From contig CAVYXJ010000013.1 of assembly GCA_963772455.1 (NCBI GenBank), positions 1 to 64,000 of the forward strand: a DNA stretch of 64,000 nt, read 5' to 3'. The notes below the pieces were generated by a model, which was not told the DNA's origin, made no database searches, and saw nothing but the letters and a program-made list of their open reading frames with translations. Origin of the DNA: Candidatus Bathyarchaeota archaeon. GTDB taxonomy: Archaea; Thermoproteota; Bathyarchaeia; Bathyarchaeales; Bathycorpusculaceae. The translations under genes were made by a program, and so were the position numbers. How positions within the stretch are numbered: the stretch's first letter is position 1; every line of letters begins with the position of its first letter. Positions 5,392-60,192 of this stretch are shown here, in pieces.

Positions 5392-6168
5392 TTATGCTGG
5401 GTAGAATACTCCAGTCATGTAGATGTAGTATAGGTTTGCTGGATGCATTGCAGTTAATAGGTTTGCGTTGGCGTAGAATGTGTAGGTGTTGCCTTCTGTT
5501 ACGGGAACTACTGTTTGTAGTGTCATGGGCCAGTAAGTGGTAGCGTCTGCCTCGCCGTTGGTTCCTGCAAATGTGCTTAGGAGATTGGGGTAAGCATTAA
5601 TGGTTGTTCCAAAGCCTAGAGTTGCAATTGTCTGGTCTCCTTCAGTGGCTGCCATGGCGTTGATATTGAGCATTACATAGCCGTTTGAAGGTGCTGTTAA
5701 GGTGATGTTTGAAACTGTTTTGTATTCTGTGGATAAACTAATTGAACTGTGTGCGTAAGTGTCATTGTAATTGATTACTACTCCTGTTCCAGCTGGTCCT
5801 GTTGGTCCAGTCGCACCAGTGGCGCCTGCTGGTCCTGTTACTCCTGTGTCTCCTTTTATTCCTTGTGCTCCAGTTTCGCCTGTTAGTCCAGATGGTCCTG
5901 TTTGTCCCATTGGTCCTGTTGCTCCGGTTGCGCCTGTGGCGCCCGTAGCTCCTGTTGTTCCAGTTTCTCCCTGTGCTCCAGTTGGTCCTGTGTCTCCTGT
6001 AAGACCTTGCGGACCTGTTAGTCCTGTGTCACCTTTTGGTCCAACTTCGCCCTGCGGTCCAACAACAGTCTGGGTTAAAACTCCAGATGATACAGCGGCT
6101 AAAGTTCCGCTGACAATTAATAAAGAAATAATCAATATAGTCTGGGATAAAGTAATTTTTTTCATCAT
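5392..6168 (-). CDS. Secreted/membrane-anchored collagen-like protein with C-terminal beta domain
   Basis: N-terminal hydrophobic signal, about 30 uninterrupted Gly-X-Y triplets (Thr-rich at Y), then a ~130-aa beta-rich domain. Confidence 0.85.
5791..6060 (-). repeat. Gly-X-Y (collagen) 9-bp-period coding repeat
   Basis: [12 protein letters not shown] ... GAT GAT GAT GAT ... GPT GPA read directly from the translation. Confidence 0.9.
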
Positions 6169-12536: not shown

Positions 12537-13256
12537 ATGTCTAACTCCAATCTTTTTCTTTCTATTGGCAAACCAATAAAGAATGAATATGGAAGAGTAA
12601 TCGGAAAAGTAGCTTCTTTCGCATTAACTCCAAGTGGAAAATTTGACGCCGTATACATCGAATTTGGCGACGGTCAATTCTCAAAACAGCCCATGGAAAG
12701 CCTAAGATTCAATGGCGCTGACATCACATTCATCTCAAAAATCAAGAATCAAGCAGGCACCCTTTGTGACCACATACCCTTAATCTGGCGCAAAGACGAA
12801 GCCCTAAAAGACCTCTTAGACAAAAAGAAAATTACACCTGAAGTCTGCCAAGATCTCCACAACAGCTTCACCAGTGTTTTAACACAACTAAAGAAAGACG
12901 CTCAAATAATCATCGACGAATCCGGAATAGAAATCGAACGATGCACAGAAGAAATATCCTCACTCAGCTACGCAATTGCTAACCTTGAAATTGAACACGA
13001 AATCGGAAAAGTCGATGAAGAAAACTACCGAAGCGCTTTCACACTATTACAAGACACCCTAAGAAGAGCCACCACAGAAAAAACAGACTACGAATTGACA
13101 AAAAGCAAACTCTCAAGCGTACTACTAGGAGACCAATCACAAACTACACAGCAAAGAACAAACAAAATCTACGCTGAACAAGTATCCAACGCATCAAAAC
13201 TTCCAGAGCCTCCAGTTGTTGTTTACGTTAAAGAAATAGGGAAAGCTGGAATTTAA
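12537..13256 (+). CDS. cdvA: Cell division protein CdvA
   Basis: N-terminal PRC-barrel-like IGKPIKNEYGRVIGKV, coiled coil and C-terminal PPVVVYV peptide. Lies between ESCRT-III genes. Confidence 0.85.
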   Translation: MSNSNLFLSIGKPIKNEYGRVIGKVASFALTPSGKFDAVYIEFGDGQFSKQPMESLRFNGADITFISKIKNQAGTLCDHIPLIWRKDEALKDLLDKKKITPEVCQDLHNSFTSVLTQLKKDAQIIIDESGIEIERCTEEISSLSYAIANLEIEHEIGKVDEENYRSAFTLLQDTLRRATTEKTDYELTKSKLSSVLLGDQSQTTQQRTNKIYAEQVSNASKLPEPPVVVYVKEIGKAGI

Positions 13257-13297
13257 TCAAGCTTAAACATTGAACAATAGGTGTGGAGGGCTAAAAA

Positions 13298-14191
13298 ATA
13301 AAAAGCTTAACTAATCAAACCCCTCCCCCTATACGTGAAGTAGCTACAAAATCTATTTTTACTTTAAAAGTCCAGCAAAATAAACTAGAACAAGCAAGTT
13401 TTCGCTTAAAAGAGCGAGATCGAATTCTTTTTGAAACATGCATGTTTGCATTAAAAAAGAATAATAAAGATAAAGCCGCAATGTGCGCTACCGAGATTGC
13501 GGAAGTCCGAAAAATCATAAAGTTTCTCTACAATGTTCAGTTAGCAATTGAACGAGTAGTTATGCGCCTTGAAACAATAAAGGAATTAGGCGATATAGTT
13601 GCCGATTTAAAACCTGCTTTACGATTACTTCAAGGTGTTTCTCAAGAATTATTCCAGGTTCTGCCTGACGTCAGCTCAGAACTAAGTACCGTTAATCAAA
13701 CAATCCAAGATACACTCCACGCCACAAAACTTTCTGGCGATGAGAATGTCATTCCAGTTGGAAAGAAGACAGAGGCAGGCGAAGAAATCCTAAAAGAAGT
13801 CTCCTGCTTCATCGAACAAAAACTATCTGAAACCCTTCCAGAACCACCAATATCTGCTCCAGTGAAAGAGAAAACCCCAATTAAAGAACTCGTTGCTTTA
13901 ACAGCAAGTTCTTCACAGATCTTTTCTCGAAAAACAGTGGAGGAATCTGGGTTTGACCCGGAAAAGACACTGTTTTCATACAAAAAATCTGAAATTAAAG
14001 AATTCTCGCTTAAAGTTGAGAAGCCCTGTTTAGAAGATGTACTTCTTGAATATGTCCGCAAAACAAACGGCGAGATTGATTTAAGCCGTTGTTCGAATGA
14101 ATTAAAGACTTCTAACGAAGAAATTGAGCGTGCCCTAGAAAACTTGGGAACCAAGGGCAAAATAAAAATTGAGTTACGTTCGCCAGAATAA
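13298..14191 (+). CDS. cdvB: ESCRT-III CdvB with C-terminal winged-helix extension; likely start upstream of track ATG (ATA at 13298)
   Basis: Snf7 core, LPEPP motif and C-terminal wH (LLEYVRKTNGEIDLSRCSNEL..IERALENL..KGKIKI). The frame is open from 13295 and encodes the otherwise missing helix 1. Confidence 0.8.
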   Translation: MKSLTNQTPPPIREVATKSIFTLKVQQNKLEQASFRLKERDRILFETCMFALKKNNKDKAAMCATEIAEVRKIIKFLYNVQLAIERVVMRLETIKELGDIVADLKPALRLLQGVSQELFQVLPDVSSELSTVNQTIQDTLHATKLSGDENVIPVGKKTEAGEEILKEVSCFIEQKLSETLPEPPISAPVKEKTPIKELVALTASSSQIFSRKTVEESGFDPEKTLFSYKKSEIKEFSLKVEKPCLEDVLLEYVRKTNGEIDLSRCSNELKTSNEEIERALENLGTKGKIKIELRSPE

Positions 14192-14214
14192 TAGAGAGAA
14201 GGAGAGAAAACAGT

Positions 14215-15408
14215 ATGAGCGCATCAAATGAACTTGAAAGAGGAGCGACAGCTTACGCCCTGGATGCTGTACGTTTAGATAAGCAAGGGCAAAAAGGAAG
14301 AGCCATTACCCTATATCAAAAAGCAATTGAAAGCCTCCTGCAACTTGTGCAGCTTTACCCAGAGTACGGCTTAAACAAAGTTTACGTACAACGGGCAATC
14401 GCTTATCAAGAAAGAATCAAAGCACTCCAAGGAACTGTCTCGTCGAATGAAATGAATCAAGCCGCAAACGATGATGCTTCAGGAGGCGGAGGAGGAGCAA
14501 CGATGGATGGAAACGGAAATGGCAGCAGTAATGGTAAGCCAAACGAGGAACTCGTAATGACAGAGAAACCTAAAGTTAATTGGGCTGAAGTTGTGGGCTT
14601 AGATACAGCTAAAAAAGCAGTAAAAGAAGCCATTGTTTACCCAGTACAACGACCCGATCTATTCCCACTCGGTTGGCCACGAGGCATCCTACTGTTTGGT
14701 CCTCCTGGCTGCGGCAAAACTTTACTAGCAGCAGCAGTTGCAACCGAGATTGATGCAAACTTCTACTCAATTGACGCAGCTTCAATCATGTCAAAGTGGT
14801 TAGGCGAAGCAGAACAGAACGTAGCTAAACTATTCGGTTCTGCACGCAAATCAGCTACTGACGGTAGACCAGCAATAGTATTTGTCGACGAACTGGACTC
14901 GTTAATGGGTAACCATTCTAACGAGGTAGGAGGCGAAATCCGCGTCAAAAACCAGTTCCTCAAAGAAATGGACGGCATCGTTGACAAAGGCAAAGCATTG
15001 CACGTTTACGTAATAGGCGCGACGAACAAACCTTGGGATTTAGATTGGGCTTTCATCAGACGATTCCAAAAACGTATTCTGGTGCCTTTAGCTGACCATG
15101 CCACCAGACTTAACATGCTTAAACTCTACTCGAGTAATCTGCAAATTGAACCGGATGTGGATTTGCGTGAGTTAGCTCGGATCTCAGAGGGCTTCTCAGG
15201 AAGCGACATACGCGATGTCTGCCAATCAGCACAACTCAGCCTTATCGGAGAATTCTTCGAGTCAGGCAAAGCAATGGATAAAGAAGCAAAACCACGTGCC
15301 TTAACAATGGCAGATTTCCAACAAATCTTTGAAGACCGCAAACCAAGCGTCTCACTCGATATGCTGTCACAGTATAACAGATGGTTCGAAGCGTTCAAAG
15401 CACTATAA
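14215..15408 (+). CDS. cdvC: Vps4-like AAA+ ATPase CdvC (MIT + AAA)
   Basis: N-terminal MIT (AVRLDKQG..AITLYQKAI), Walker A GPPGCGKT, pore loop SKWLGE, Walker B FVDELD and ATNKPWDLD..RRF. Confidence 0.92.
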   Translation: MSASNELERGATAYALDAVRLDKQGQKGRAITLYQKAIESLLQLVQLYPEYGLNKVYVQRAIAYQERIKALQGTVSSNEMNQAANDDASGGGGGATMDGNGNGSSNGKPNEELVMTEKPKVNWAEVVGLDTAKKAVKEAIVYPVQRPDLFPLGWPRGILLFGPPGCGKTLLAAAVATEIDANFYSIDAASIMSKWLGEAEQNVAKLFGSARKSATDGRPAIVFVDELDSLMGNHSNEVGGEIRVKNQFLKEMDGIVDKGKALHVYVIGATNKPWDLDWAFIRRFQKRILVPLADHATRLNMLKLYSSNLQIEPDVDLRELARISEGFSGSDIRDVCQSAQLSLIGEFFESGKAMDKEAKPRALTMADFQQIFEDRKPSVSLDMLSQYNRWFEAFKAL

Positions 15409-21807: not shown

Positions 21808-22084
21808 CTTTGTACTTTTAAAAGTTTAGAATGTGATTTTTGAAGGTTTTGTATTTTCATACTTTGTATGTAGATTGTCGGAACTGAACAAATTGTACTT
21901 AATCAACAAAGAACCCGCAACGCAAAATACTTATGCTATCTATATACAGTTGAGTTCTAAAAAACTTCACAATTTTCTTAACTTCTATGGGGTTTGATTG
22001 GAAAAACTTTATTATCCGACTGTATATTTTTACACTCGGTTGAAAAAAGGTGCATATGACCTTCTAACACTCTGGGTTGGTTTG

Positions 22085-22735
22085 ATGGCAAAATTAACCG
22101 ATTTAGGTTTCTTGAAAAACATGATTTTTGAGGCTATCGTATCAACTTACAATCGGGATGGGTCACCAAACGCTGCACCGATGGGCACAATTATGCAAAA
22201 TCAGCAAACAATCAGCCTCAACATATTCAATACGTCAGAAACCAACCGCAACCTAAAGACAAACAAATGTGCGGTCATCAACTGTACAAATAATATTGAC
22301 ATTTTTTACAAAACAACTTTCAAAGAAACCAACCCAACTGGGAAATTGCCCGTTGAATGGTTTGAGAAATCGAAAACTGTGAACGCTCCTAAACTTCAGT
22401 TATCAGATGCAACTATTGATGTTTCCGTAGCAAGCATGGAGTCGATAGTCGCTGAGAAAACCAATTTCACATGCTCGATAGTGAAAATAAACGTTGAAAA
22501 AATGTACCCACAAATTTACAGTCGAGCTATGGCGTTAACTCTTGAAGCAATCATACATGCCACACGACTGAAAGTATTCGTTAACGATAAGGCGCACGAA
22601 AAGAATGTTAACACTCTCTTGCAAGTAATCGAAAACCATAAAGATGCAATAAATCGCATAGCACCCAACTCGAAATATACAGTCATTATGTCCGATTTAA
22701 CAAAAAAAATCGATTCATGGAGGAACAAACCATGA
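22085..22735 (+). CDS. DUF447 family protein (flavin split-barrel; methanopterin-cluster associated)
   Basis: EAIVSTYNRDGSPNAAPMG and LEAIIHATR motifs. Overlaps the RFAP synthase start. Confidence 0.75.
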   Translation: MAKLTDLGFLKNMIFEAIVSTYNRDGSPNAAPMGTIMQNQQTISLNIFNTSETNRNLKTNKCAVINCTNNIDIFYKTTFKETNPTGKLPVEWFEKSKTVNAPKLQLSDATIDVSVASMESIVAEKTNFTCSIVKINVEKMYPQIYSRAMALTLEAIIHATRLKVFVNDKAHEKNVNTLLQVIENHKDAINRIAPNSKYTVIMSDLTKKIDSWRNKP

Positions 22736-23685
22736 AAGTTCAAATTAAAACTCCTGCTCGACTGCATCTTGGTCTAATCGATATGAATGGTGATTTAGGC
22801 AGAATGTTCGGCGGATTAGGTGTCGGCATAGATCGCCCAAACATTATCATTGAAGCTCAAAATGCTGAGAACTTCTCTGTGACAGGTCAAGAGACAGAAC
22901 TTGCAAATATACTTGCAAGACGTTTCTTCACAAACTACAAAATACAACCAAAAGTACACATTAACGTCGTGCAAGCAATTCCAGCCCATATCGGGTTGGG
23001 TTCAGGCACACAATTCTCCTTAGCAATTGCAACAGCTCTTGCATCACTGTTTGATGTTAACGCAACTATTCCTGAGTTGGCAATAGCTATGGGGCGTGCA
23101 AGAAGAACTGCAGTTGGGACCTCAATATTTGAGTATGGTGGCTTCGTTGTCGATGGAGGAAAAAACCTCAATAATACAAAGTGTCCTCCTTTGATTTACC
23201 GCCAACCGTTCCCCAGCGAGTGGCGTTTTATCGTGGCTGTGCCCAACTTAAAAGAGGGGTTATCAAACTCAGAAGAAAACCATGCCTTCGACAAATTAAC
23301 CAAAATGCCTGCCGAAGATGTAGGGCAAATCTGCCGCCTAATCATGCTAAAACTTCTCCCAGCTATAGCGGAACACGACATAGAAAACTTTGGAAATGCT
23401 CTTACAAAAATCCAAATAGTAACAGGAAATCATTTTGCTCAAGCTCAAGGCGGAACCTACGCAAGCCCCACCGCCGCAGAATTCATAGAGTTCCTCAAAA
23501 AAGCTGGTACCTACGGTGTGGGGCAGAGTTCTTGGGGACCAGCACTCTACGGAGTAGTTAAAAAAGAAGAAGCTAAGGCAGTGCTTTCAAAAGTCAAAAC
23601 TTACCTACGCTCAGGGGTTGGAGGTCAAGCATTTATCGCGAAGGCAAACAACAAGGGCGCAACCATACGAGTAATTGAGGATTAA
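22732..23685 (+). CDS. mptG: Beta-ribofuranosylaminobenzene 5'-phosphate (RFAP) synthase, GHMP family
   Basis: TPARLHLGLID, PAHIGLGSGTQ, GGFVVDGG and GQSSWGP motifs. Confidence 0.88.
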   Translation: MKVQIKTPARLHLGLIDMNGDLGRMFGGLGVGIDRPNIIIEAQNAENFSVTGQETELANILARRFFTNYKIQPKVHINVVQAIPAHIGLGSGTQFSLAIATALASLFDVNATIPELAIAMGRARRTAVGTSIFEYGGFVVDGGKNLNNTKCPPLIYRQPFPSEWRFIVAVPNLKEGLSNSEENHAFDKLTKMPAEDVGQICRLIMLKLLPAIAEHDIENFGNALTKIQIVTGNHFAQAQGGTYASPTAAEFIEFLKKAGTYGVGQSSWGPALYGVVKKEEAKAVLSKVKTYLRSGVGGQAFIAKANNKGATIRVIED

Positions 23686-23688
23686 AAA

Positions 23689-25251
23689 GTGAAAGCACTC
23701 CTAGTTACTGGTCAACTAGCCCAAGACATAGTTGCTAAATACGCTAAAGAAAGCGCCGTAGAAACCAAAACTATTGCACTTAAAATTGCAGTTGCCGCTT
23801 TTTTAACTCCTAAAACCATCATTGAAAAATTAAAAAACCTTAATCTAACAGGTTTTAACGTGATATTGGTTCCTGGGCTCATGCGAGGAGATACAAATTT
23901 AATATCCAAAGCTACGGGCATCCCCACCTTTAAAGGCCCAAGATACGCCGCAGACTTGCCAACTATTTTAAATTCACTTTGCGAAGTACAACTCTCAACC
24001 ACTACACCAGCAGACGATTTGCTAAGAGAAAAACTCCAAAAACAAGCTTTGCAAGAAATAGAAAAAACCGAAAAAAACCGTTTAGAACTGCTCAAGAAAC
24101 CCAGCAGCATGCTCATTGGAAACTTGGCTATAGGCAAAGATTTTCCCATGCGTGTCCTAGCAGAAATTGTTGACGCCGCCTTGATGGATAAAGAAACCAT
24201 CCAGCAGACTGCAAAACGCTTCGTTAAGGCAGGAGCTGACCTGATTGACGTTGGCATGATTGCAGGAGAATCCCAACCAGAAAAAGCCAAGCGCATTGTC
24301 GAGTGGGTTAAGCAGGTTGTTAATGTGCCCGTTAGCATAGATACACTTGACCCCGCTGAGATTAGAGCTGCAGTCCAGGCAGGCGCAGAATTGGTTCTAA
24401 GCGGTGATGCAGGTAACATTCAAGAAATCGCTCCATTCGCATCCAAAGTTGCTGTAGTTGTTATCCCCACTAACCAGCGTCAAGGCTACTTTCCAAAAAA
24501 AGCTCAAGATCGCGTTAACTATCTCGAAGAAATAATTTTTAACGCCAAAAAACTCGGCATAAACCGTTGCCTTGCGGATTTGATCTTGGAACCCACAAAC
24601 ATCTTGGAATCCTTTATTGCTTTCAAAGAGTTTGCTAGTCGAAACCCCGACGTGCCCCTTTTTGTGGGGATCTCAAATGTTACGGAACTTATCGATGCAG
24701 ACTCAGTTGGTGTTAATGCAATTCTTGCTCGTTTATCCTCAGAAGTTGAAGCCAGCATCCTTTTGGCTACCGAGAAAAGCGACAAAGCAAAGGGCACTGT
24801 CGGAGAGGAAGTTACTGCAGCGAAAATGATGTTTTTGGCCAAAAAACGTGGATCAGTCCCAAAAGACCTCGGAATAGACCTCTTAATCCTCAAGGATAAG
24901 CGCTTCCATGAGGAGCCATACGACAAAAAACTCGAAGCAAAAGCTAATGTTGTAAAGGTATCAGAAAAGTTGGAGCCGGTAACATTAGATTCAAAAGGAA
25001 TGTTTAAAATTGCAGTAGACCGTGTGGAACACGTTTTGGTTGCAGTCTATTATGATTCAATCCAGATGGATAAGTCTATTAACGTTGTCAAGGGCAAAAC
25101 CGCAGAAAGCGTATGCGTCAAGATTTTGGAAATGGGTTTGGTGTCAACTCTTGATCATGCGGCTTATTTAGGCAGCGAACTAGCTAAAGCTGAGGTTGCC
25201 CTGAGAACTGGAAAAGAATACATTCAGGATAGTTCTTTGTTTAAGAAATAG
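23689..25251 (+). CDS. Dihydropteroate synthase-like protein (archaeal methanopterin-related family) with C-terminal DUF4346-like domain
   Basis: LLVTGQLA, KGPRYAADL, LAEIVDA, GADLIDVG, SIDTLD, NVTELIDADSVG and HAAYLGSELAKAE motifs. Confidence 0.82.
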   Translation: MKALLVTGQLAQDIVAKYAKESAVETKTIALKIAVAAFLTPKTIIEKLKNLNLTGFNVILVPGLMRGDTNLISKATGIPTFKGPRYAADLPTILNSLCEVQLSTTTPADDLLREKLQKQALQEIEKTEKNRLELLKKPSSMLIGNLAIGKDFPMRVLAEIVDAALMDKETIQQTAKRFVKAGADLIDVGMIAGESQPEKAKRIVEWVKQVVNVPVSIDTLDPAEIRAAVQAGAELVLSGDAGNIQEIAPFASKVAVVVIPTNQRQGYFPKKAQDRVNYLEEIIFNAKKLGINRCLADLILEPTNILESFIAFKEFASRNPDVPLFVGISNVTELIDADSVGVNAILARLSSEVEASILLATEKSDKAKGTVGEEVTAAKMMFLAKKRGSVPKDLGIDLLILKDKRFHEEPYDKKLEAKANVVKVSEKLEPVTLDSKGMFKIAVDRVEHVLVAVYYDSIQMDKSINVVKGKTAESVCVKILEMGLVSTLDHAAYLGSELAKAEVALRTGKEYIQDSSLFKK

Positions 25252-26571: not shown

Positions 26572-27493
26572 TTGGAAAGCAATCCCTTAAGCACAAGCTT
26601 CGCTGGCTTGAAGCTTTCAAACCCAACAATTCTGGCTTCAGGAATCCTTGGGTACTCCTCCGAATCTTTATGTCGAGTTGCAAAAGGAGGCGCTGGAGCA
26701 GTTGTTACAAAATCTGTTGGTGCAGAACCTCGCGTTGGATATTCAAACCCAACTTTGGTTCAAGCAGAGGCCGGGTTAATTAATGCAATGGGGTTGCCAA
26801 ATCCAGGAATTGAAGTATATTCTCAGGAAATTAAATTTTCTAAAACCATTTTGCGTGTACCACTTATCGTGAGTGTATTTGGTTACTCTGCGGAAGAATA
26901 CGCAAAGGTGGCTAAGAAAGCAGCTGAAGCAGGCGCGGATGCAATAGAACTTAATGTTTCGTGTCCCCATGTAAAGCAAACTGGTGCCGAAATTGGTCAG
27001 AACACAAAATTACTCACGGAAGTTGTTCAGCTGGTTAAGGCGGCAATTAGTAAGCCATTAATTGTAAAACTGTCTCCAAATGTTTCAGATATAACTGTTC
27101 TAGCTCATGCGGCAGTTGAAGCTGGTGCTGATGCATTAACAGTTGTGAATACTCTAAAAGCGATAGCGATCGATTCAGAAACGATGCGACCAATTCTTAG
27201 TAATGTAAAAGGAGGTTTATCGGGTGCTGCTGTCAAACCCGTAGCTCTTGCGCTGCGTTTACGATATCCATGAAGCCTACTCTGATGTACCGATAATCGG
27301 CTGCGGCGGAATATCAGATTGGCGTGATGCAGTGGAGTTTTTCTTGGCAGGTGCCTCAGCTGTGCAGGTTGGCTCAGCGGTTGCGGTTGATATCGAAGTT
27401 TTTCAATCGATAAACAAAGGGATAGAAACATATTTGAGACGTAAACAAATTGGGAGTGTTAAAGAAATTGTCGGCCTTGCACACCACAAATAA
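26572..27493 (+). CDS. pyrD: Dihydroorotate dehydrogenase family 1B catalytic subunit (frameshift near 27255)
   Basis: NPTILASG, VTKS, INAMGLPNPG, ELNVSCPH, VKLSPN and NTL motifs. Continues in the +27248 frame with IIGCGGI..AVQVGSA. Confidence 0.9.
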
Positions 27494-28287
27494 TTCACTA
27501 CGAACAACACAGATTGTTCGGATACAAAATGAAAGTCCAACAGTGAAAACCTTCACATTTGTTGATAAACAATGCGGCAAAGCTAAACCGGGACAATTTT
27601 TAATGCTTTGGATACCTGGCATAGACGAAATTCCACTTAGCATATTGGATGCAAAAAACAACTTAGTTTCTGTTTCAGTCAAAGCGATTGGCGACGCCAC
27701 AAGGCACTTACATGCGATGGAGACAGGTTCAACTGTTGGAATACGCGGACCATTCGGTAACAATTTCACTGAAAGTCGCGGTAGAGTTCTACTTAGTCGG
27801 CGGCGGAACAGGTACGGCACCCTTACTCTTCCTAGCTAAGCAACTTGCGACCAAAACTGAACGCCTCTCATTCGTAGAGGGAGCAAAAACCAAAGACGAA
27901 CTACTATTCGTTAAAGAGATTCGCGAAGTCTGTAACGAAAAAACCTTCATAACTACCACAGAAGACGGTACCGCTGGCCTCCAATGTCTAGTCACAAAGC
28001 CACTTGCCGAGCTTTTAGACACAGAAGAATTTGACATGATTTACACCTGTGGACCAGAAGTTATGGTTAAAAAAATCTTTGAAATGACCGAAAAACGCAA
28101 ACTTCCATTGGAAGCAAGTCTTGAACGTCTAATGCGTTGTGGCATTGGTCTATGTGGAAGCTGCATGATAGGTAAATACCGCGTATGCCGCGACGGACCA
28201 ATCTTTAACGCTGCACAATTGCGTCAAATCCAAGAAGAACTTGGAATTTCAAAACTTGGCTTTGACGGCTCAAGGATACCGATTTGA
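27450..28287 (+). CDS. pyrK: Dihydroorotate dehydrogenase electron-transfer subunit (frameshift near 27790)
   Basis: KPGQFLMLW, GIRGPFGN, GGGTG, YTCGPE and CGIGLCGSC..VCRDGP motifs. Confidence 0.88.
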
Positions 28288-52333: not shown

Positions 52334-53467
52334 TTGAGGATAGAGAACGTTCCGATTGCATTAGTTCTGTTATGCAATAGCTTTTTTAATCCACTCTTCA
52401 CCCTTATTTTGCGGTGCATTCAAACGGAAGAAGAAGCAGATATTTGGACTCCAATGGATGGAGACACATTCGTCACTAAAGATGGGTTTATCATGAACAC
52501 GTTTGGGTATGAACACCCCGACGACCGCGTTTTTGCGTTTCTCAAGTACATACCCGCTCAATACAAGCAACTCTTCAATGTGGAGATGCTTTCTCGCACT
52601 TGGAAATTTGGCACAAGCGAACTTACAAACCAATTATTTCGAGCAGAAAAACTCTACACCGCCAAAAACTACCAAACCTTCATCGAAGCCTTCCGCAAAA
52701 CCTTCCCAAGCTACATTTTCTTTGACCAAACACGCGGTAAAGAACTCATAACTGCACCCTTCGAAGTTATTGAACAAGTGTTTGTCCCAAAAGACCGCCT
52801 AGTTTGGCTTCAGAACCTCAAAAACCCTGATAAACTCCAAACTATGTCCCTTCAATTAATCGATCTAATCTCCAAAGAATCAGGCGTACCATGTGGCGAT
52901 TTGGGTATCCATGGTTCTATTGCATTGGAAATGCATGCGCCAGAATCAGACATCGACTTTGTTGTTTATGGCACAAGCAACTTCCGTGCTGTAGAAGATG
53001 CTATACAAAGACTTGTAAACGAAAACAAACTCACCTACATTGCAGGCAACCGCATTGAAGCAGCCCGAAAATTCGTTGGCAAATACAATGGCAAAATCTG
53101 GATGTATAATGCAACAAAAAAACCCGAAGAAATCAAGACCCAATTCGGCGAATTTACCTACACACCCTTAGCTCAGCTTCGTTTCATTGCAACCGTCTGT
53201 GATGACACAGAAACCATGTATCGTCCGGCAATCTATAAAATTAGCAATTATCAACCCCAAGATGACCAATCGGAACTTGATTTAGACAAAATTCCTATGC
53301 AAGTTGTCTCAAACATAGGTTGCTATCGAAACGTTGCACGAGCTGGGCAACAAATTAAGGTTGCAGGAACTCTCGAAAAAGTCCAATCAACATGCAACGA
53401 TAGTGTCTCATATCAGGTCGTTGTTGGAACAGCAACTTCGGAAGAAGAGTACATATGGCCACTTTAG
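52334..53467 (+). CDS. COG1665-type Pol-beta nucleotidyltransferase, paralog 1 (start uncertain)
   Basis: [29 protein letters not shown] and C-terminal OB-like '[10 protein letters not shown]'. Confidence 0.78.
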
Positions 53468-54534
53468 CTCTGCGAGACCGCGACGCAATTCAAACCGAAG
53501 AAGGTTTGATTTTTCGAGTTTTCGGCTACAGCCATCCCAAGGATGGTTATGTTTGCGATGCTGAGTATGCTTCATCTAAAATCTTTCTGTCCAAAGACCC
53601 AAGAGCTCCTCGAACAGGCAGAAGCGAAGTATTTTATAAATTCTACAATGACGAGGGCATGAAGTTAATTACAAAAAAATATCCACAGTATCTCATCAAT
53701 CATCAAATGCTCGGGTTAAAAATCGTCGGTGTACCGCAAACTTGCATAATGGAGGCAAGAAAACCTCCTGAACGTCTTCAGGACCTTCTCAAGGTTGGAC
53801 CAACCGACTCTCTCTTAAGTGCGATGGAACGTGTCCTGGAAATATCTCTTAAACACACGGGGCTAAAAAATTCTGATTTCGGCGTCTTTGGTTCTATGCT
53901 TCATGGTTTCCATCATCCCAAGTTTTCGGATATCGATTTGACAATTTATGGTAAGGCTGAAAACGCCAAAATGCGTGAAACAATGGCGCAGCTATTTTCG
54001 GATGGAAGTTCGCTTTTAAGAAACGAGTTTGAATCCCAAGACGTTATGAAAGGCAAAGATTGGCGTTTCAAAAACTTTGACGTTAAAGATTTCGTTTGGC
54101 ATCAGCGTCGAAAAATGATTTACGGTTTATTCGACGATCGCAAGCATAGCGGAAGAGTTATCAAAGCCGAATTTGAACCCGTTAAATCTTGGAATGAAAT
54201 CCAATCTGAATATGACCCGAATGTCCGCATCGTGCAGAAAGGTTGGGTTAAGTTAAAAGCTCGTGTTACTGCAGATGATGAAGCACCCTTTATCCCATCG
54301 ATCTACATTATTGAACCCTTAGAAGTTCTGGTTGGTCCCAAAGAGGCAATTGAAGTAAAACGGGTTTTTAGTTATATGGAAGAGTTCCGTCAGCAGGTAC
54401 AGAAAGATGAGACTGTAATTGTTGAAGGTAACCTTGAAAAAGTCGAATTGCCGTCGGGAAGTTTCTGGCAGGTAACACTGACTTATTGCCCACGATATTA
54501 CGAACAAGTACTCAAGGTCCAGCATTCTTTATGA
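53455..54534 (+). CDS. COG1665-type Pol-beta nucleotidyltransferase, paralog 2
   Basis: [36 protein letters not shown] and [10 protein letters not shown]. Overlaps the paralog 1 stop. Confidence 0.8.
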
Positions 54535-54935
54535 ATTGTTTAAAATCGTAGAAAAGTAGTTGATGCAGCAGCAATCGCAGTGTGTAATTGCAGCAGCAGC
54601 ATCAGCAGCAGCATCAACAACTTCTAATTCAAACAGGAAATGCCTAATTTTTAGTTCTGAAAGATGCAATAATCGTTGTGCAAAATGTTTGTGTAGCGGC
54701 ATCAGAAGCATTTTCTCCTGTTACCATTTCTTGCTCCATTCAAGTTCTTTAGAGACTTAAAGTCGTAGGTTCTGGTTTAGAAGATAAAACTGTATCATTC
54801 AGGTTTATTTCTGAAAGATAATACCCAACCGAAAATTCCAGAAGTGTCATCATCATTATCATCATTATCTTCTAAGAATGGTTAAGCTTTGAAGAATGAG
54901 CTGTTTCTTTGAAATTATGGCGTTGGAGTTAAGGT

Positions 54936-55979
54936 CTAAATTTTATTTTTAACAATCATGTAGTCGGTGGGTTTGCCACCAATAATCACTCGATAATGAG
55001 TTGCTCCTGTTTTTATGTCCGTGACAAGTTCAACTTTTCCTTGGGCTTCAATTGTGGTAGGTTCTCTTTGATTTGTGGGTACTTGTTCGCAGAACCTGCC
55101 CCGGAACGAAACAATTTCGTCGATTGCCGTTAGTATTGGTCCTTCAACAACTGCAACATCTCTAAGCTTGTAGGTGCAAGGAGTATATAGTGCGTCTGAA
55201 CTGTCAGACACGGTGGCGGTTATTTTTGCGTAACCGATGTTCTTGTAGTATTTGTCTCCATAATGGTCGCTTGTTTCGTTCCAATCCTTCACGAAACGAA
55301 TGAAATAGTCGGTTCCCATGAACATGCCTTGAAATGCTTTTTGGTTTTCAACCTTTTCGAAGTCTTCGAAGCTCATCTGAGTATCCTTCGAACGGAAGTC
55401 AAAAAGTGTCTGGAGTTCCTCTCGACTGTAGGCTTTGAAGCCTGAATCGGAAGCTGTTAGCAGTTCTTTTAGTGCAGTGTAGACTTTGCGACTGTTTTCT
55501 ACTCCGTAAATTAATGGATCTATGTCTGATTTTTCGTTCGTTAACCCTGCCATAATAGATCCAGAGATCCCAATTGCGGTCCAAGGTATTCTTGCTTTTT
55601 CTTTTAATGTTGTTGCCAGCCGCAGAGCCTTATTCTCCAGTGTACTGAGGTTTTTGTTTAACCGCAATGAGGCGAGTTTTTCTGTGGGTTGGAAGTGCTC
55701 AGCGATTTGATCGATTGGGACTTCACACATTGTCTCCCCAAATACAGGGTCAAAAACAATAAGATCAGGATGATTCTCCTGCAGATACTTAAAACGGTCT
55801 CCTAAACTGTACACTTTGCCATAAAGCGCGTTTTTTCCCTGTCTTGTACCCTGTGGCGAGGGAATAAAGCGAGGAAACGCGATGATTTTGTTGGGTGGGT
55901 GAACTAAGCCTTTAACGTCGAAAAACACGTTGCTCTTTGTTTTTATTAAGTCGCCCTCGCGTGCTCTCATACAAATCAA
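54936..55979 (-). CDS. COG1665-type Pol-beta nucleotidyltransferase, paralog 3
   Basis: REGDLIKT..FDVKGLVHP, GISGS..SDIDPLIYG and IEAQGKVELV. Confidence 0.8.
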   Translation of the reverse strand: MICMRAREGDLIKTKSNVFFDVKGLVHPPNKIIAFPRFIPSPQGTRQGKNALYGKVYSLGDRFKYLQENHPDLIVFDPVFGETMCEVPIDQIAEHFQPTEKLASLRLNKNLSTLENKALRLATTLKEKARIPWTAIGISGSIMAGLTNEKSDIDPLIYGVENSRKVYTALKELLTASDSGFKAYSREELQTLFDFRSKDTQMSFEDFEKVENQKAFQGMFMGTDYFIRFVKDWNETSDHYGDKYYKNIGYAKITATVSDSSDALYTPCTYKLRDVAVVEGPILTAIDEIVSFRGRFCEQVPTNQREPTTIEAQGKVELVTDIKTGATHYRVIIGGKPTDYMIVKNKI

Positions 55980-56042
55980 AGGCTTGTAGTTTTCAAAACT
56001 TTAATAAACCTTTTTTAAACCACATAACCAGAGCACATCAAC

Positions 56043-56991
56043 ATGAGTAACTGCGAAAAGGCGCAACACATCTCCAAATGCCTTCAACTGGCAATAATGT
56101 TGGAAGTCAGCAGCCAAAAACCAGGTAACGTAAGCTTCACATCTAGCTTTGAAAAAACAAGGGTGGAGCATTTTTTGGCGTCAGCTGTTGCCGCGGGACC
56201 TACTTTTCAAGAGGCGGCTTACCTTGGGATTTCAGTGGCTGAAAAAAGACTTGATGTTGACAAGGTAGGTTTGGGTGAACTCATAAAGGATTGTGCTGTG
56301 GATGTTGCTGCTTGGCAGAAAGGCGGAAATACAATTCTGGGTACAGTGATGCTGTTTGTTCCTATCGCTGTTGCGGCAGGAATGACGCCGGCAAAAGAAG
56401 AATTCGTTTTTGATTTTTCTAAAATGCGTAAGAACATTGATTTAATTGTGAAATCTACGACTGCGTTGGATTCAGTTCGCCTTTACGAAGCTGTCGACAT
56501 TGCCAATCCCAGCGGACTTGGTGGTGCGCCAGACCTCGATGTAACTGACCCAGCTTCTAAAGAGCGATTGATAAAAGAGAATGTGGTTTTGTTTGAGGTT
56601 TTCAAAATTGCCTCAGCTTACGACGATATTTGCTATGAATGGGTCAACAATTATCCCATTACTTTTGACTTAGCTTATCCATATTTGATGAAGCAGCTTG
56701 AAAGTAAATCTCTCAATACTGCAGTTGTTCACACGTTCCTAAAAATCCTCTCTGAACGGCCAGATACTTTCATCGCGAGAAAAGTAGGTAAGGAAAAAGC
56801 ACTTGAAGTGTCGGCTAGACGCTAAGAATGTGTTGGAGCTTGGCGGATTAGAAACTGCTAAAGGCAAAAAAAGCCTTATGGAACTGGATGAAAAACTGCG
56901 GTTAAAAGGTAATTCATGTAACCCTGGCACAACGGCCGATTTAACGGCGGCTGCATTGGCACTCTGCACCCTTGGCGGGTATAGACCTTAA
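56043..56991 (+). CDS. citG: CitG family triphosphoribosyl-dephospho-CoA synthase homolog (frameshift ~56815)
   Basis: LEVS..KPGNV, NTILG..L..P and PDTFIARK.G motifs. Continues in the 56803 frame with NPGTTADLTAAAL. Confidence 0.85.
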
Positions 56992-57031
56992 ATTCTCTCA
57001 TTGCCACTCTTTGATCTATAGATCTCAAAAA

Positions 57032-58287
57032 TTAGGAAATTTGGATTTTTTTGTCAATTGAGCTGAAGACGTTTTTTTCGATTGTGCGTTTAAGGCTGCA
57101 AATTTTGTCTTCTGACTCTTTGTAAGCATTCTCTTTTACGGTTTCATGAGTTTCTACACTTGTTTTTCTTGCTTTCAGCAAATCAACTTGTTCTTGGAGT
57201 TGTGCAATGGTTTGATTTATCTCATCCATCTTTGAAGAAGCTAACAACTGATCCTTGTTAGTCGCCATCTCTACACATCTTATTTGAAGGTTCGCTAAAG
57301 AATCCTTATTCAAAATCTCATTTATTGATTGTTCAGCTTTGCGAGCCTTGTCTGGTTTCAATTTTAACTTATCCTCAGTCATTAACGCTGTGAGTTTATG
57401 CAAAATTTCCCTAAGCTGTGGATAACCAGTTTTTTCGGACACTAACGCATCAAAGGGCGCTTCCAAAAATTGGTTTATCTTGTTTAGGTCATCAGGAGTT
57501 ATTCCTCCACCGCCGCCTCCAGTGGCTAAAGCTTGCATTTTGATGAATGGCTTTTGTAAATGTCTAAGCGAATGTTTTAGTTCGTTGCTTAATGAGTCAA
57601 TTTCGCAATTGACCATGTTAAGCTTGTCAACAGGACCTTTGCATTTTAGAGTAGTTAATTTTTTCTTCCAAAACTGCAATTTCTTGCTCGATTGGCATTC
57701 GCTCGTTTTTTATTGTTTCTCTGTCACATTGAAGGATTGTCAATTGTTTTTCTACGTTTTGAAGTTCATTGATTTGCTGGAGTGCTTCTTCTAAAGTTTT
57801 GGTTTTAACGTATTCTTTGGTGACGTAGTCGTTTAGAGTTGTGTAGGATTGTTTGGCTCGCTCATAGATGGCTGAGAATTTTCGTCTATCCATTATAAAG
57901 AATGGAGAGATTCTTGGAAACCAATTTTTGATGTCGATTTCTGTTACCAAAATGACTTTTTGGGTTTCCTGGGCATACTTGCTTAAAGTCTCGTAAGAGA
58001 CTTGTTCGGGCGGGTTTAGTTTTTTGAGGCGATCGAGGAACAAGTCGTGCTAGTTTGTTTAGTGCTCTTGCGCGGTTGTAGACTTTCATGTTTCTTTTTT
58101 CTATTTCTTTTGAGCTTGTGTCGAAGAGCATTTTGCTGACTTCAATTACTGCTTGGACTGATGTGTTCATTTCGTCGCGTAGTTTTTTGGCTTGGGCATG
58201 TACGGGCGTTAAGATGCTGCTGGTTTGGGTTTCAAGCCAACGTTTTACTTCGCTTGAGGATGAGAATTGGAGGGTTGTTTCAGTCAA
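57032..58287 (-). CDS. Hypothetical helical/coiled-coil protein split by probable sequencing frameshifts (~58040, ~57660)
   Basis: Track ORFs 57886-58287, 57627-58043 and 57032-57679 abut in shifted frames and read as one protein. Confidence 0.55.
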
Positions 58288-58416
58288 CTCTGCTTCACTG
58301 CCTATTGTTATCGTTGGCTTGTTTATCTATTTTAGCCCAAATTCGCAACTCTTATTTGGGTAGCTACTCTTAAATAGGTAACCAATACATTGAACACACT
58401 ATACGAAGGAATCAAA

Positions 58417-59040
58417 ATGAACACCAAAGCACTCTCACTAATAATAGTCTTCTACTGCCCTGGCGAGCACACTAAACCATACTGGACCAAACATCCCTTT
58501 GCCTGCGCCGTTCGCTCAAGGACTCATTACCAAGTATGGGAAATCCCCATCGTCATCGCGTTCCTAATGGTAAGACCCACATCAGGATTAATCGTCTCAA
58601 TTGTAAATACAGCAGTGTTGATTTGCTAATTGTTTTCCCAGGTGTTCTTACCAACAGGACCAGTCTATAACTTAGTCGCTACCTTGATAGCGATGTTTGT
58701 TGGAATTTATTGCCTAGCGGTTGCGAACGGGGTGCAAAAATGAAACTTCTGCTCTAAAAACCCGGATACAAACATACTTGTCTAAAGTCAAATGGGCAGC
58801 AGTCGCAACAGCTTGGGAATCTCTTCGCAGCGTTGCATTCTGACAGTTGTTCATTACTTTGCCTTCCGCAGGAAGTCTTACCAATCGGTTTTAAAAGCTT
58901 CGGATTTGCCCAAACATCAGCGAATGGCATATTTGCCTTTGCTGCCTTTTCAATGCAACAGTGGCATTGTACACAGTTCCGATTGCTGAATTGCGCAGAG
59001 AGTCAAAAAGTCCTGCCTTAATGATGCGCGAAAGTAGAAA
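58417..59040 (+). pseudogene. Heavily disrupted membrane-protein gene (ECF S-component-like)
   Basis: MNTKALSLIIVF..YQVWEIPIVIAFL..G..VSIVNT.. followed by many frame breaks. Either decayed or poor-quality sequence. Confidence 0.4.
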
Positions 59041-59079
59041 ACTGCCCAATCCCAGACAAAAAGTAATAAATTTAGAATC

Positions 59080-60040
59080 CTAAGGATTCTGCGAAAGTAC
59101 CTTAGGGTTTATTTTTCCTGCTTTAAAGGTTCTTCCAGATTTTGCGTTGTTTATCATGAGCACTGCTGGGGCGAATAATCCGTGGTCTATTTTGTAGAAG
59201 TCTTTGTCGGCTTCGCGGAAAATCTGCAGGAAAGGTTTGCCGTAGTCTTTAGAGGCCATTGAAGGTGCTTGGTTAATGATGTTTTGAAGCGCTGTTTCAT
59301 CGTCAAAGTCCACGGTGAGGTAGACTGTTCCGCCGTAGAGGATGGCGTCGTTTGTTCTTGCCATTGCAACTTCAAAGTCATGACCAACCGGTGGGAATTG
59401 GGCAGTAACCCATTGCGTAACGGATAACTTTTGGGCTTAAACCGAGTGTTCGGAGTTTATGGATTCCTACTTCTACTACTCTGCCCGCGACCTGTGTTAA
59501 GCCCGCGATGCTTGCGGTTGGAGCAACAACAATGATCAAGTTTTGAGCTAAGACACCACTGGCGGTTGTCACTTTTTCAATAAGTGCATCTGAAGGAAGG
59601 GCATTACTTTCTAGGGTTATAACGGCTTTGTCGCTTGTGTCTTTGTAGCCGATTTCCTCGAAAACATCTTTGGGTTTAAGCGCTAAGAGCTCGGATGGGA
59701 CCTGAGCCAATTGCTATTGAGCCGTCTGGTTCTTTAATGCGCCATCCTGCAAACTGCGAGCCCAAGCATGGCAATGGCTGGGAAATCGGAGGAAACAGTG
59801 ACTGAGGGAAAAGTTAAGTCGCCATATGTTTTGAATCCTAACTGAACTTTCCCTGCACCGCCTAAACATAAGTTCAGTTAATAATTTGCCAGCTTGAAAA
59901 CCGCCTGAAGCCTTGACACCTGCGTCGACGATTGTTGCTCCTGTAGAGGATTTAGAAACTGTTACGCCGTAAGATTCTGGGGTTTCGATGAATTTTTGGG
60001 CTTTTTTCCAAGCCATTTGGTTAACGCTTAAAGTTCCCAT
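59080..60040 (-). CDS. mch: Methenyltetrahydromethanopterin cyclohydrolase (multiple frameshifts, probably sequencing errors)
   Basis: LSVN, IVDAGV..GG..AG, APTASIAG..QV..RVVE..HKL, MARTNDAILYGG and FYKID..LFAPA spread over three frames. Confidence 0.88.
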
Positions 60041-60192
60041 GACTTTCACCTTAAAGGTATCTTATTTGATATTTCATTTAATATTAAAGTTAACGCTACA
60101 ATCATGAAGAACGGATTGTAGTCTGAATCAGCATGCTTTTATTGTCGGGGCAACTATGCAAATAGCGAAAAACTAACTGCGAAGGCAAATAG

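Follow-up and report, generated by a model that had tools for sequence, protein, structure and literature searches.

The 64,000-nucleotide stretch of DNA analysed here (the window) opens contig CAVYXJ010000013.1 of a Candidatus Bathyarchaeota assembly (GCA_963772455.1), the 2.45-Mb genome of a Bathyarchaeia-type soil archaeon in 24 contigs that is 92% complete. Three paralogous genes for putative nucleotidyltransferases (NTases), hereafter P1, P2 and P3, are clustered there with a CitG-like gene and with mch, and they belong to a family whose link with methanopterin is, on the evidence of comparative genomics, well supported. The genes of the cluster are as follows:

52454-53467, forward strand: NTase paralogue P1 (subfamily B), motif GIHGS..SDID, nearest representative 47% identical
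53455-54534, forward strand: NTase paralogue P2 (subfamily A), motif GVFGS..SDID, Bathyarchaeota relatives up to 96% identical
54936-55979, reverse strand: NTase paralogue P3 (subfamily C), motif GISGS..SDID, family profile E-value 5.6e-123
56043-56991, forward strand: CitG-like gene (citG), PF01874 at 181.8 bits (cut-off 27, E-value 2.9e-53), with a frame shift near 56816
59080-60049, reverse strand: mch, for methenyl-tetrahydromethanopterin (H4MPT) cyclohydrolase, cut into three open reading frames (ORFs)

The ORF of P1 was listed as 52334-53467, but the TTG start at 52334 adds 40 residues that do not align, and the likely true start is, from the alignment, M41 at 52454. P1 and P2 overlap by 13 nt. 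The three proteins, 337 to 359 aa long, align over their full length with 21-24% identity and 37 invariant columns, the N-terminal G..HP motif (H27) being invariant among them. A search of the whole 2.45-Mb genome found no NTase copies besides P1, P2 and P3, and citG and mch are both single-copy. In relatives, the JGI names of the family are "predicted nucleotidyltransferase" or "Uncharacterized protein conserved in archaea". The initial annotation had described three clustered paralogues with an intact Pol-beta motif and a common N-terminal G..HP, P3 as divergent from citG across 63 bp, and mch as lying some 2 kb beyond citG; ORFs and alignment confirm each of these points, with the citG start at 56043 and a distance to mch of 2.1 kb. 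As for the CitG-like protein, it reaches only 21.9, 18.6 and 17.5 bits against the NCBIfam CitG/MdcB equivalogs, whose cut-offs are 272-282, and by sequence it is a member of the PF01874 family rather than an orthologue of bacterial CitG or MdcB.

A profile built from the three paralogues was searched against 1.84 billion representatives (50% identity clusters) and gathered 1415 clusters at E ≤ 0.001, 417 of them at E ≤ 1e-30. In an alignment of 117 sequences, five residues (G143, G146, S147, D159 and D161) never vary and E248 hardly does, all six being retained in P1, P2 and P3. The Pfam model NTP_transf_2 (cut-off 21 bits) scored 24.0 bits with P2, 20.4 with P1 and 17.2 with P3, and was matched by 111 of the 117 members at E ≤ 1, while MTPAP-like_central was weakly matched by 40 of the 117. 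No NCBIfam model was matched by P1-P3, and the CitX and MdcG models of Pfam gave no match for any of the three at E ≤ 0.01.

The AlphaFold model of P2, made from the 117-sequence alignment (pLDDT 96.1, pTM 0.92), comprises a beta-barrel (residues 1-113), a Pol-beta core (114-246) and an OB fold (260-359). In a wide structural search, the core was closest to TUT7 (Z 7.0, root-mean-square deviation (rmsd) 3.4, 92 aligned residues), followed by a cGAS-like receptor and Trf4 (both Z 6.9), GLD-2 (6.7) and MenT1 (6.4), with TUT1, Cid1 and Pol X enzymes also within the overall range of Z 6.0-7.0. The matches of the OB fold span Z 5.8-7.1 and include MCM-N (Z 7.1, rmsd 2.7, 80 aligned), SSB (Z 7.0, rmsd 3.8, 88 aligned) and RPA (Z 6.4); by the search tool's own grading, the Z values for both core and OB matches are middling. 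With the full P2 model, Foldseek found nothing in the PDB at E ≤ 0.001 and only OB folds beyond that threshold, among them SSB at E 9.4e-3. The N-terminal 112 residues, modelled alone with a pLDDT of 92.0, had no clear structural relative, the best matches (Z 4.4) being small SH3-like barrels of the Lsm, MazF, KOW and Tudor type. TiaS, an OB-fold tRNA agmatidine enzyme, was not among the 50 structural matches listed. A search of PDB sequences with the family profile returned no solved member (best match E 0.058, unrelated), and a single-sequence search gave only chance-level HPPK-DHPS matches (E 0.29).

The Pol-beta nucleotidyltransferase fold proposed in the initial annotation is thus borne out by the motif, the third acidic residue and the structural matches of the core, and its OB-like C-terminus by residues 260-359 of the model, with the middling scores given above. 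Since the fold searches, the PDB profile search and the CitX/MdcG scan gave no family match, the family is, as modelled, a separate and undescribed branch of the Pol-beta superfamily with a three-domain build of its own.

A FastTree phylogeny of 120 rows was drawn from the 150 representatives listed, after exclusion of fragments and of a fusion protein. Subfamily A (P2; 11 rows), subfamily B (P1; nine rows) and subfamily C (P3; 59 rows) each have a support of 100, and subfamily Bp (37 rows, support 92), which has no paralogue in the window, forms a clade with B (support 91). The single copies of three methanogens belong to a four-row clade (support 100), whose junction with C is weak (54). To judge from this tree, the paralogues of the window are old subfamilies. 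C is the most widespread type, adjoins citG in relatives and is nearest to the methanogen single copy, and it is probably the ancestral one. Two to five paralogues per genome occur, with a single copy in methanogens; Thermoproteota with Mch mostly carry C and Bp, and the lineage of the window has C, A and B. In relatives, the C and Bp genes overlap by a few bases which, together with the 13-nt overlap of P1 and P2, suggests co-translation. The paralogues could possibly serve separate steps, act on separate acceptors or form a heteromer.

Concerning the distribution of the family, 301 evenly drawn Thermoproteota genomes were scanned for the NTase, CitG, RFAP synthase (E ≤ 1e-20) and Mch. The NTase was found in 150 genomes and CitG in 141, the two occurring together in 138, with the NTase alone in 12 and CitG alone in three. 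RFAP synthase was detected in 108 genomes and Mch in 78, one or the other being present in 150, of which 144 also carry the NTase; six genomes have the NTase without either marker, and six have a marker without the NTase. All four markers are absent from whole families, namely f12 (0/43), f16 (0/17), f18 (0/25) and f21 (0/20). Mch is missing from 77 of the NTase-bearing genomes and, as all but six of these carry RFAP synthase, the tie is with the pterin cofactor rather than with the step catalysed by Mch.

Other phyla were reached through loci found with the mcrA primer motif. Genomes of Methanolobus, Methanobacterium and Methanospirillum have one NTase, one CitG and one Mch each, and every one of the 91 genomes sampled from the Methanobacterium phylum has the family as a single gene. 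Among 121 Halobacteriota, the NTase was found in 91, including 65 of the 67 with Mcr, and CitG in 116. No NTase was detected in the 91 Thermoplasmatota genomes, where RFAP synthase and CitG are found in seven genomes each, and a Methanomassiliicoccales genome yielded no NTase, CitG or Mch.

The gene neighbourhoods were examined in 20 fetched regions from 19 genomes and 13 families, with ORFs called by a longest-ORF rule and NTases typed with subfamily hidden Markov models. A Pfam scan covered 150 of the 198 flanking ORFs, the 48 omitted being all those of L170, L177 and L182 and the outer ORFs of L179, L180, L181 and L183. The commonest arrangement is the adjacency of a C-type gene and citG: the two adjoin or lie within 1 kb of each other in L164-L169, L171, L172, L174-L176 and L179, and genome-survey searches placed a C-type NTase next to citG in L170 and L177 as well, both outside the Pfam scan. 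Altogether, of the 14 fetched regions with citG, 13 have a C-type gene that either adjoins it or is at most 1 kb away. In L178, only a Bp-type gene is near citG, and in L181 two genes lie in between. Bp-type genes directly follow mch in L180, L181 and L182, are 1 kb away from it in L173 and adjoin ftr in L167, L168, L178 and L183, and genes of the family were also found beside mtd. In many genomes of families f25, f20 and f44, citG lies 5-10 kb from the RFAP synthase gene, with the NTase elsewhere.

NTase genes also lie within clusters for pterin synthesis (MptA, MptD, MptE, radical-SAM methylase). In L169, the order is radical-SAM HMPTM, DUF22, NTase Bp, a gene of no assigned family, NTase C, CitG and DUF447, followed by an MptA-type GTP cyclohydrolase (GCHY-1), an MptE-like kinase, DHNA and a flavoprotein with Fer4. 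The order in L176 is NTase Bp, NTase C, CitG, DUF447, MptE-like, flavoprotein with Fer4 and DUF1464, with RFAP synthase 4 kb further on. L164, from the same genus as the window, has B, A, C, citG, mch and the S component of an energy-coupling factor (ECF) transporter, and in L165 and L166, from the window's own family f1 and without RFAP synthase, an ECF S component is found between the C type and citG. These S components of the relatives' modules resemble riboflavin/folate transporters (L165:9907-10719, L166:10934-11932, L164:12026-12628).

A further association is a gene fusion. In P0177 (505 aa), a bacterial-type HPPK, that is, a pterin pyrophosphokinase (PF01288, E 3e-40, residues 8-134), is fused to a C-type NTase (residues 166-502). 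The fusion recurs in 17 clusters of 487-557 aa (P0177, P0284-P0299); the 16 further clusters cover 97-100% of P0177 at 56-79% identity and come from four sources, on contigs of up to 137 kb. Longer fused forms of P3 (609-2000 aa) were searched for and none was found, which is weak evidence, and the loci that a metagenome scan found with the fusion protein all encoded HPPK alone, no NTase being close by. A predicted complex of the CitG-like protein and the C-type NTase, using proteins of the same genus, gave "no answer" (score 0.00) and weighs neither way.

Two other loci can be placed on record here. At L184:1838-4156 (G125:C77), a 773-residue frame combines an NTase (profile positions 5-320 of 341) with a peptidase domain of the M20 family, possibly through a lost stop or an assembly error, the genome being in 300 contigs; this read-through is too doubtful to serve as evidence of a fusion. 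At L160:2-385, the single NTase of Methanobacterium lies about 1.1 kb from an ORF that resembles, judged by eye, a 6-pyruvoyl-tetrahydropterin-synthase/QueD-type enzyme.

Back in the window, the other genes that bear on the cluster are the following:

21998-22735, forward strand: DUF447, at the start of an early methanopterin operon
22717-23685, forward strand: RFAP synthase (MptG), TIGR00144 at 220.5 bits (cut-off 113.5)
23689-25251, forward strand: DHPS-like gene, TIGR00284 at 406.6 bits
25241-26020, reverse strand: S component of an ECF-type transporter, convergent on the DHPS-like gene
57032-58287, reverse strand: coiled-coil gene without a known family, broken up into three ORFs

The presence of RFAP synthase, DUF447 and DHPS-like genes in the window had been announced in the initial annotation and is confirmed, at about 27-30 kb from the paralogues; they constitute an early methanopterin-synthesis operon 27 kb upstream of these. 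The coiled-coil gene is probably not part of the NTase-citG module.

The frame breaks of citG, the coiled-coil gene and mch were compared with contigs of relatives (85-95% alike for the most part) that came from four runs in three studies, the best share of the region's sampled words in any public run being 0.11. The sites are:

56816 (citG): one base fewer in relatives' contigs of all four runs
57654 (coiled-coil gene): one base fewer in two runs
58044/58045 (coiled-coil gene): one base fewer in three runs
59687 (mch): one base fewer in all four runs
59766 (mch): one base fewer in two runs
59872 (mch): one base fewer in three runs

Because these six single-base insertions within 3.2 kb all coincide with a frame break, and the bases are missing in relatives, the breaks are probably assembly errors rather than signs of gene decay, although they could possibly mark real pseudogenes in this one lineage. 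Elsewhere in the window, at 26572-28287, a dihydroorotate dehydrogenase gene matches profile positions 2-228 of 291 only and a pyrK-like gene seems truncated, with overlapping ORFs between them, and frameshifts of the same kind may be involved. A cell-division ESCRT set, consisting of a CdvA-like gene and a Vps4-type AAA ATPase that has a MIT domain, is found at 12537-15408, and this set also lies near the NTase-citG module in the relatives L165, L167 and L168. Finally, the reverse strand at 5392-6168 encodes a 258-aa ORF with collagen-like triple-helix repeats (PF01391, E 5.4e-15), unusual in an archaeon.

The association of the NTase family with CitG and H4MPT genes, as put forward in the initial annotation, is supported by co-occurrence, conserved neighbourhoods and the recurrent HPPK fusion: the distribution of the family is coupled to that of H4MPT and citG genes, and the NTase-citG-mch linkage is kept in related genomes. 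The family very probably belongs with methanopterin-type cofactor synthesis, a degree of confidence that covers both the explanation favoured below and the alternative in which it acts at another step of the same synthesis. As for the function itself, we favour, with moderate confidence and by analogy with CitG/CitX and MdcB/MdcG, NTases that act with the CitG-like enzyme in the synthesis of the methanopterin-type side chain through a CitX-like route. CitG works with a partner of NTase fold, and both pairs build a prosthetic group by triphosphate-then-phosphodiester chemistry; Pol-beta NTases, for their part, usually move a nucleotide-like phosphoryl unit onto a hydroxyl. By this route, the CitG-like enzyme would put an alpha-linked ribose-5-triphosphate from ATP on the ribitol hydroxyl of a pterin intermediate, with release of adenine, and the C-type NTase (P3) would treat the ribosyl triphosphate like a nucleoside triphosphate, joining its alpha-phosphate to the hydroxyl of 2-hydroxyglutarate with release of pyrophosphate. 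The product would be the phosphodiester end of methanopterin. The remaining subfamilies, A and B in the window and Bp in other genomes, might add further groups to a lineage-specific tail or serve as partner subunits.

Such a CitG-then-NTase order appears to be the most economical mechanism, because it would explain both the alpha-linked ribose from ATP and the phosphodiester to hydroxyglutarate, and the neighbouring position of the C type and citG agrees with a product passed directly from CitG to the NTase. Bacterial dephospho-H4MPT is made without the phosphate and the hydroxyglutarate, which fits the proposed route, though methylotrophs keep a citG-like orf7 beside mch.

Compared with CitG+CitX and MdcB+MdcG, the archaeal system has the same pairing of a PF01874 gene with a Pol-beta-fold NTase (co-occurring in 138 of the 153 genomes with either), and the proposed formation of a ribosyl-5-triphosphate and then of a phosphodiester with loss of pyrophosphate is alike. 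The acyl carrier protein (ACP) served by the bacterial enzymes is, however, missing: the initial annotation had noted the lack of a citrate lyase or malonate decarboxylase ACP gene, and this was borne out, PF06857 being found in none of 11 genomes including the window's own, with a positive Escherichia coli control. Also unlike the bacterial systems, the archaeal CitG-like protein remains far below the equivalog cut-offs (21.9 vs. 280), the NTases have no sequence match to CitX or MdcG and possess an extra N-terminal barrel and C-terminal OB fold, and the context is one of methanopterin genes, so that a small molecule, rather than a serine of a protein, would be the acceptor.

In the H4MPT-linked "archaeal-like" clusters of methylotrophs, a citG-like gene, "Orf7", is found beside mch, as mch-orf5-orf7 in Methylosinus and in the same order in a Methylomonas gene table; its annotation reads H4MPT-linked C1 transfer pathway protein. 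The difference is that the bacteria make dephospho-H4MPT; in archaea, NTases join the cluster. With TUT7, Trf4/PAPD, GLD-2, Cid1 and cGAS-like enzymes, the archaeal NTases share the Pol-beta core and the GS...DxD motif (Z 6.4-7.0 over some 90-100 residues), but they lack PAP-associated and RNA-binding modules, are only 8-20% identical and have another domain order; unlike for these terminal nucleotidyltransferases, distribution and context point to cofactor synthesis. CofC/CofD of F420 synthesis likewise join a 2-hydroxy acid to a cofactor via a phosphodiester, but with other folds and another activation route (guanylylated lactyl phosphate), and no homology to the NTases was detected.

Several observations weigh against the favoured route. 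Work on extracts reportedly named phosphoribosyl pyrophosphate as the ribosyl donor and an ATP-dependent addition of hydroxyglutarate, unlike a CitG-type route. In structure, the core is similar to terminal uridylyl/adenylyl transferases that act on RNA (Z 6.4-7.0), and OB folds are typically found in proteins that bind nucleic acids. CitX and MdcG are outside the 25 most-matched of 60 Pfam families in a scan of the 117 members at E ≤ 1. The RimK-type ligases found as neighbours may serve methanofuran-type cofactors instead. At the E ≤ 1e-20 threshold, 43 of the 150 NTase-bearing Thermoproteota have no RFAP synthase, and five genomes (G109, G216, G228, G057 and G017) have strong Mch, CitG and NTases but neither RFAP synthase nor the DHPS-like TIGR00284; as these are 92-97% complete, with a best RFAP synthase score of 28 bits, import of a pterin precursor or replacement enzymes are suggested. 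NTase, citG and mch are unlinked in the Methanolobus, Methanobacterium and Methanospirillum genomes, and a Methanofastidiosum genome has CitG alone.

Of the same tenor, 28 of the 116 CitG-bearing Halobacteriota have no NTase, 26 of these being without Mcr. The five small genomes tested among them (G311, G322, G333, G344 and G380; about 1.0-1.6 Mb, CitG-bearing and without Mcr) all carry strong Mch and RFAP synthase, and no NTase was found in them at E ≤ 1e-5. The large-genome members of this NTase-free group are, at a guess, haloarchaea, which have been argued to use tetrahydrofolate despite homologues of methanopterin enzymes. Four Thermoplasmatota genomes also have RFAP synthase and CitG without the NTase. 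Together, these five Halobacteriota and four Thermoplasmatota genomes show that the family is not needed wherever the early pathway exists, or is replaced there by another enzyme. Moreover, the genomes counted are related and not independent, and the counts overstate the support.

The alternative that survives best, a lesser but real possibility, keeps the family in methanopterin-type synthesis or salvage at another step, for instance by adenylylating or otherwise activating either an intermediate or hydroxyglutarate, or by rebuilding the tail on an imported precursor. All the genomic-context evidence applies to it equally, and it is also favoured by the five Bathyarchaeia-type genomes that have Mch, CitG and NTases while lacking both RFAP synthase and the DHPS-like gene, by the ECF S components within the module in genomes without RFAP synthase, and by the two to five paralogues per genome. 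The prevalence of the C type-citG adjacency, which fits a direct hand-over, and the usual transfer by Pol-beta NTases of a nucleotide-like phosphoryl unit to a hydroxyl speak rather for the CitG-then-NTase route. A bolder proposal, which we consider rather unlikely, is that Bathyarchaeia and relatives make an as yet undescribed methanopterin derivative with an extended or branched tail, each subfamily (C, Bp/B, A) adding one group to a CitG-made ribosyl-triphosphate, and that lineages with Mch, CitG, NTases and an ECF S component but without RFAP synthase and DHPS import a precursor and rebuild the tail.

The resemblance of the core to TUT7, Trf4, GLD-2, TUT1 and Cid1 (Z 6.4-7.0), that of the OB fold to SSB, RPA and MCM-N (Z 6-7.1) and the weak MTPAP-like_central matches would suit RNA or tRNA nucleotidyltransferases, whose linkage to one-carbon genes would be incidental or regulatory. 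This is improbable: the structural Z scores are middling, the family is found in none of the 91 Thermoplasmatota and in none of families f12, f16, f18 and f21, which also lack methanopterin genes, and it is positioned inside pterin operons. The HPPK fusion, whose partner is a pterin pyrophosphokinase, is likewise hard to reconcile with an RNA function.

Least probable of all is a CitG/CitX-type system that places a phosphoribosyl group on a protein of the one-carbon pathway or serves methanofuran or F420; the CitG/CitX precedent, neighbours such as RimK-type ligases, an F420-ligase-like gene and fwd genes, and the bacterial Orf5/OrfY of "archaeal-like" clusters, which turned out to be methylofuran enzymes, plead for it, but the ACP family is absent from all 11 genomes, nearly all of the 77 NTase-bearing Thermoproteota without Mch have RFAP synthase, the fusion partner is a pterin kinase, and methanofuran and F420 have no ribosyl-phosphate of this kind. 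In general, modification of a protein or RNA is compatible with the fold but disfavoured by distribution and context.

In the searchable literature (subscription papers and bioRxiv supplements being outside it), no paper was found that names COG1665 or COG1767 or that pairs methanopterin with CitG. Papers there that pair methanopterin with triphosphoribosyl contain nothing on function, and a combined search that included nucleotidyltransferase returned no paper. A 2011 inventory counts an "estimated 7 unknown proteins" for methanopterin. The late side-chain enzymes are thus unassigned in the searchable literature, and an assignment may have been published elsewhere.

Methanopterin is the one-carbon carrier of methanogenesis, of the anaerobic oxidation of methane and alkanes and of the archaeal Wood-Ljungdahl pathway, and the three NTases are candidates for long-missing steps of its synthesis. 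The CitG-like enzyme and the NTase, the latter encoded once in each of the 91 genomes sampled from the Methanobacterium phylum, make up a conserved candidate pair that can be tested in tractable methanogens and offers new targets for methane mitigation. If the CitG-then-NTase route is true, CitG/CitX-type chemistry would be at work not only on the prosthetic groups of proteins but on a free cofactor as well. From the expansion of the paralogues and the genomes in which early pathway genes are missing, there are hints that uncultured archaea have novel cofactor variants or rely on salvage; should the extended-tail and import proposal hold, archaea of soils and sediments would share a cofactor-salvage economy.

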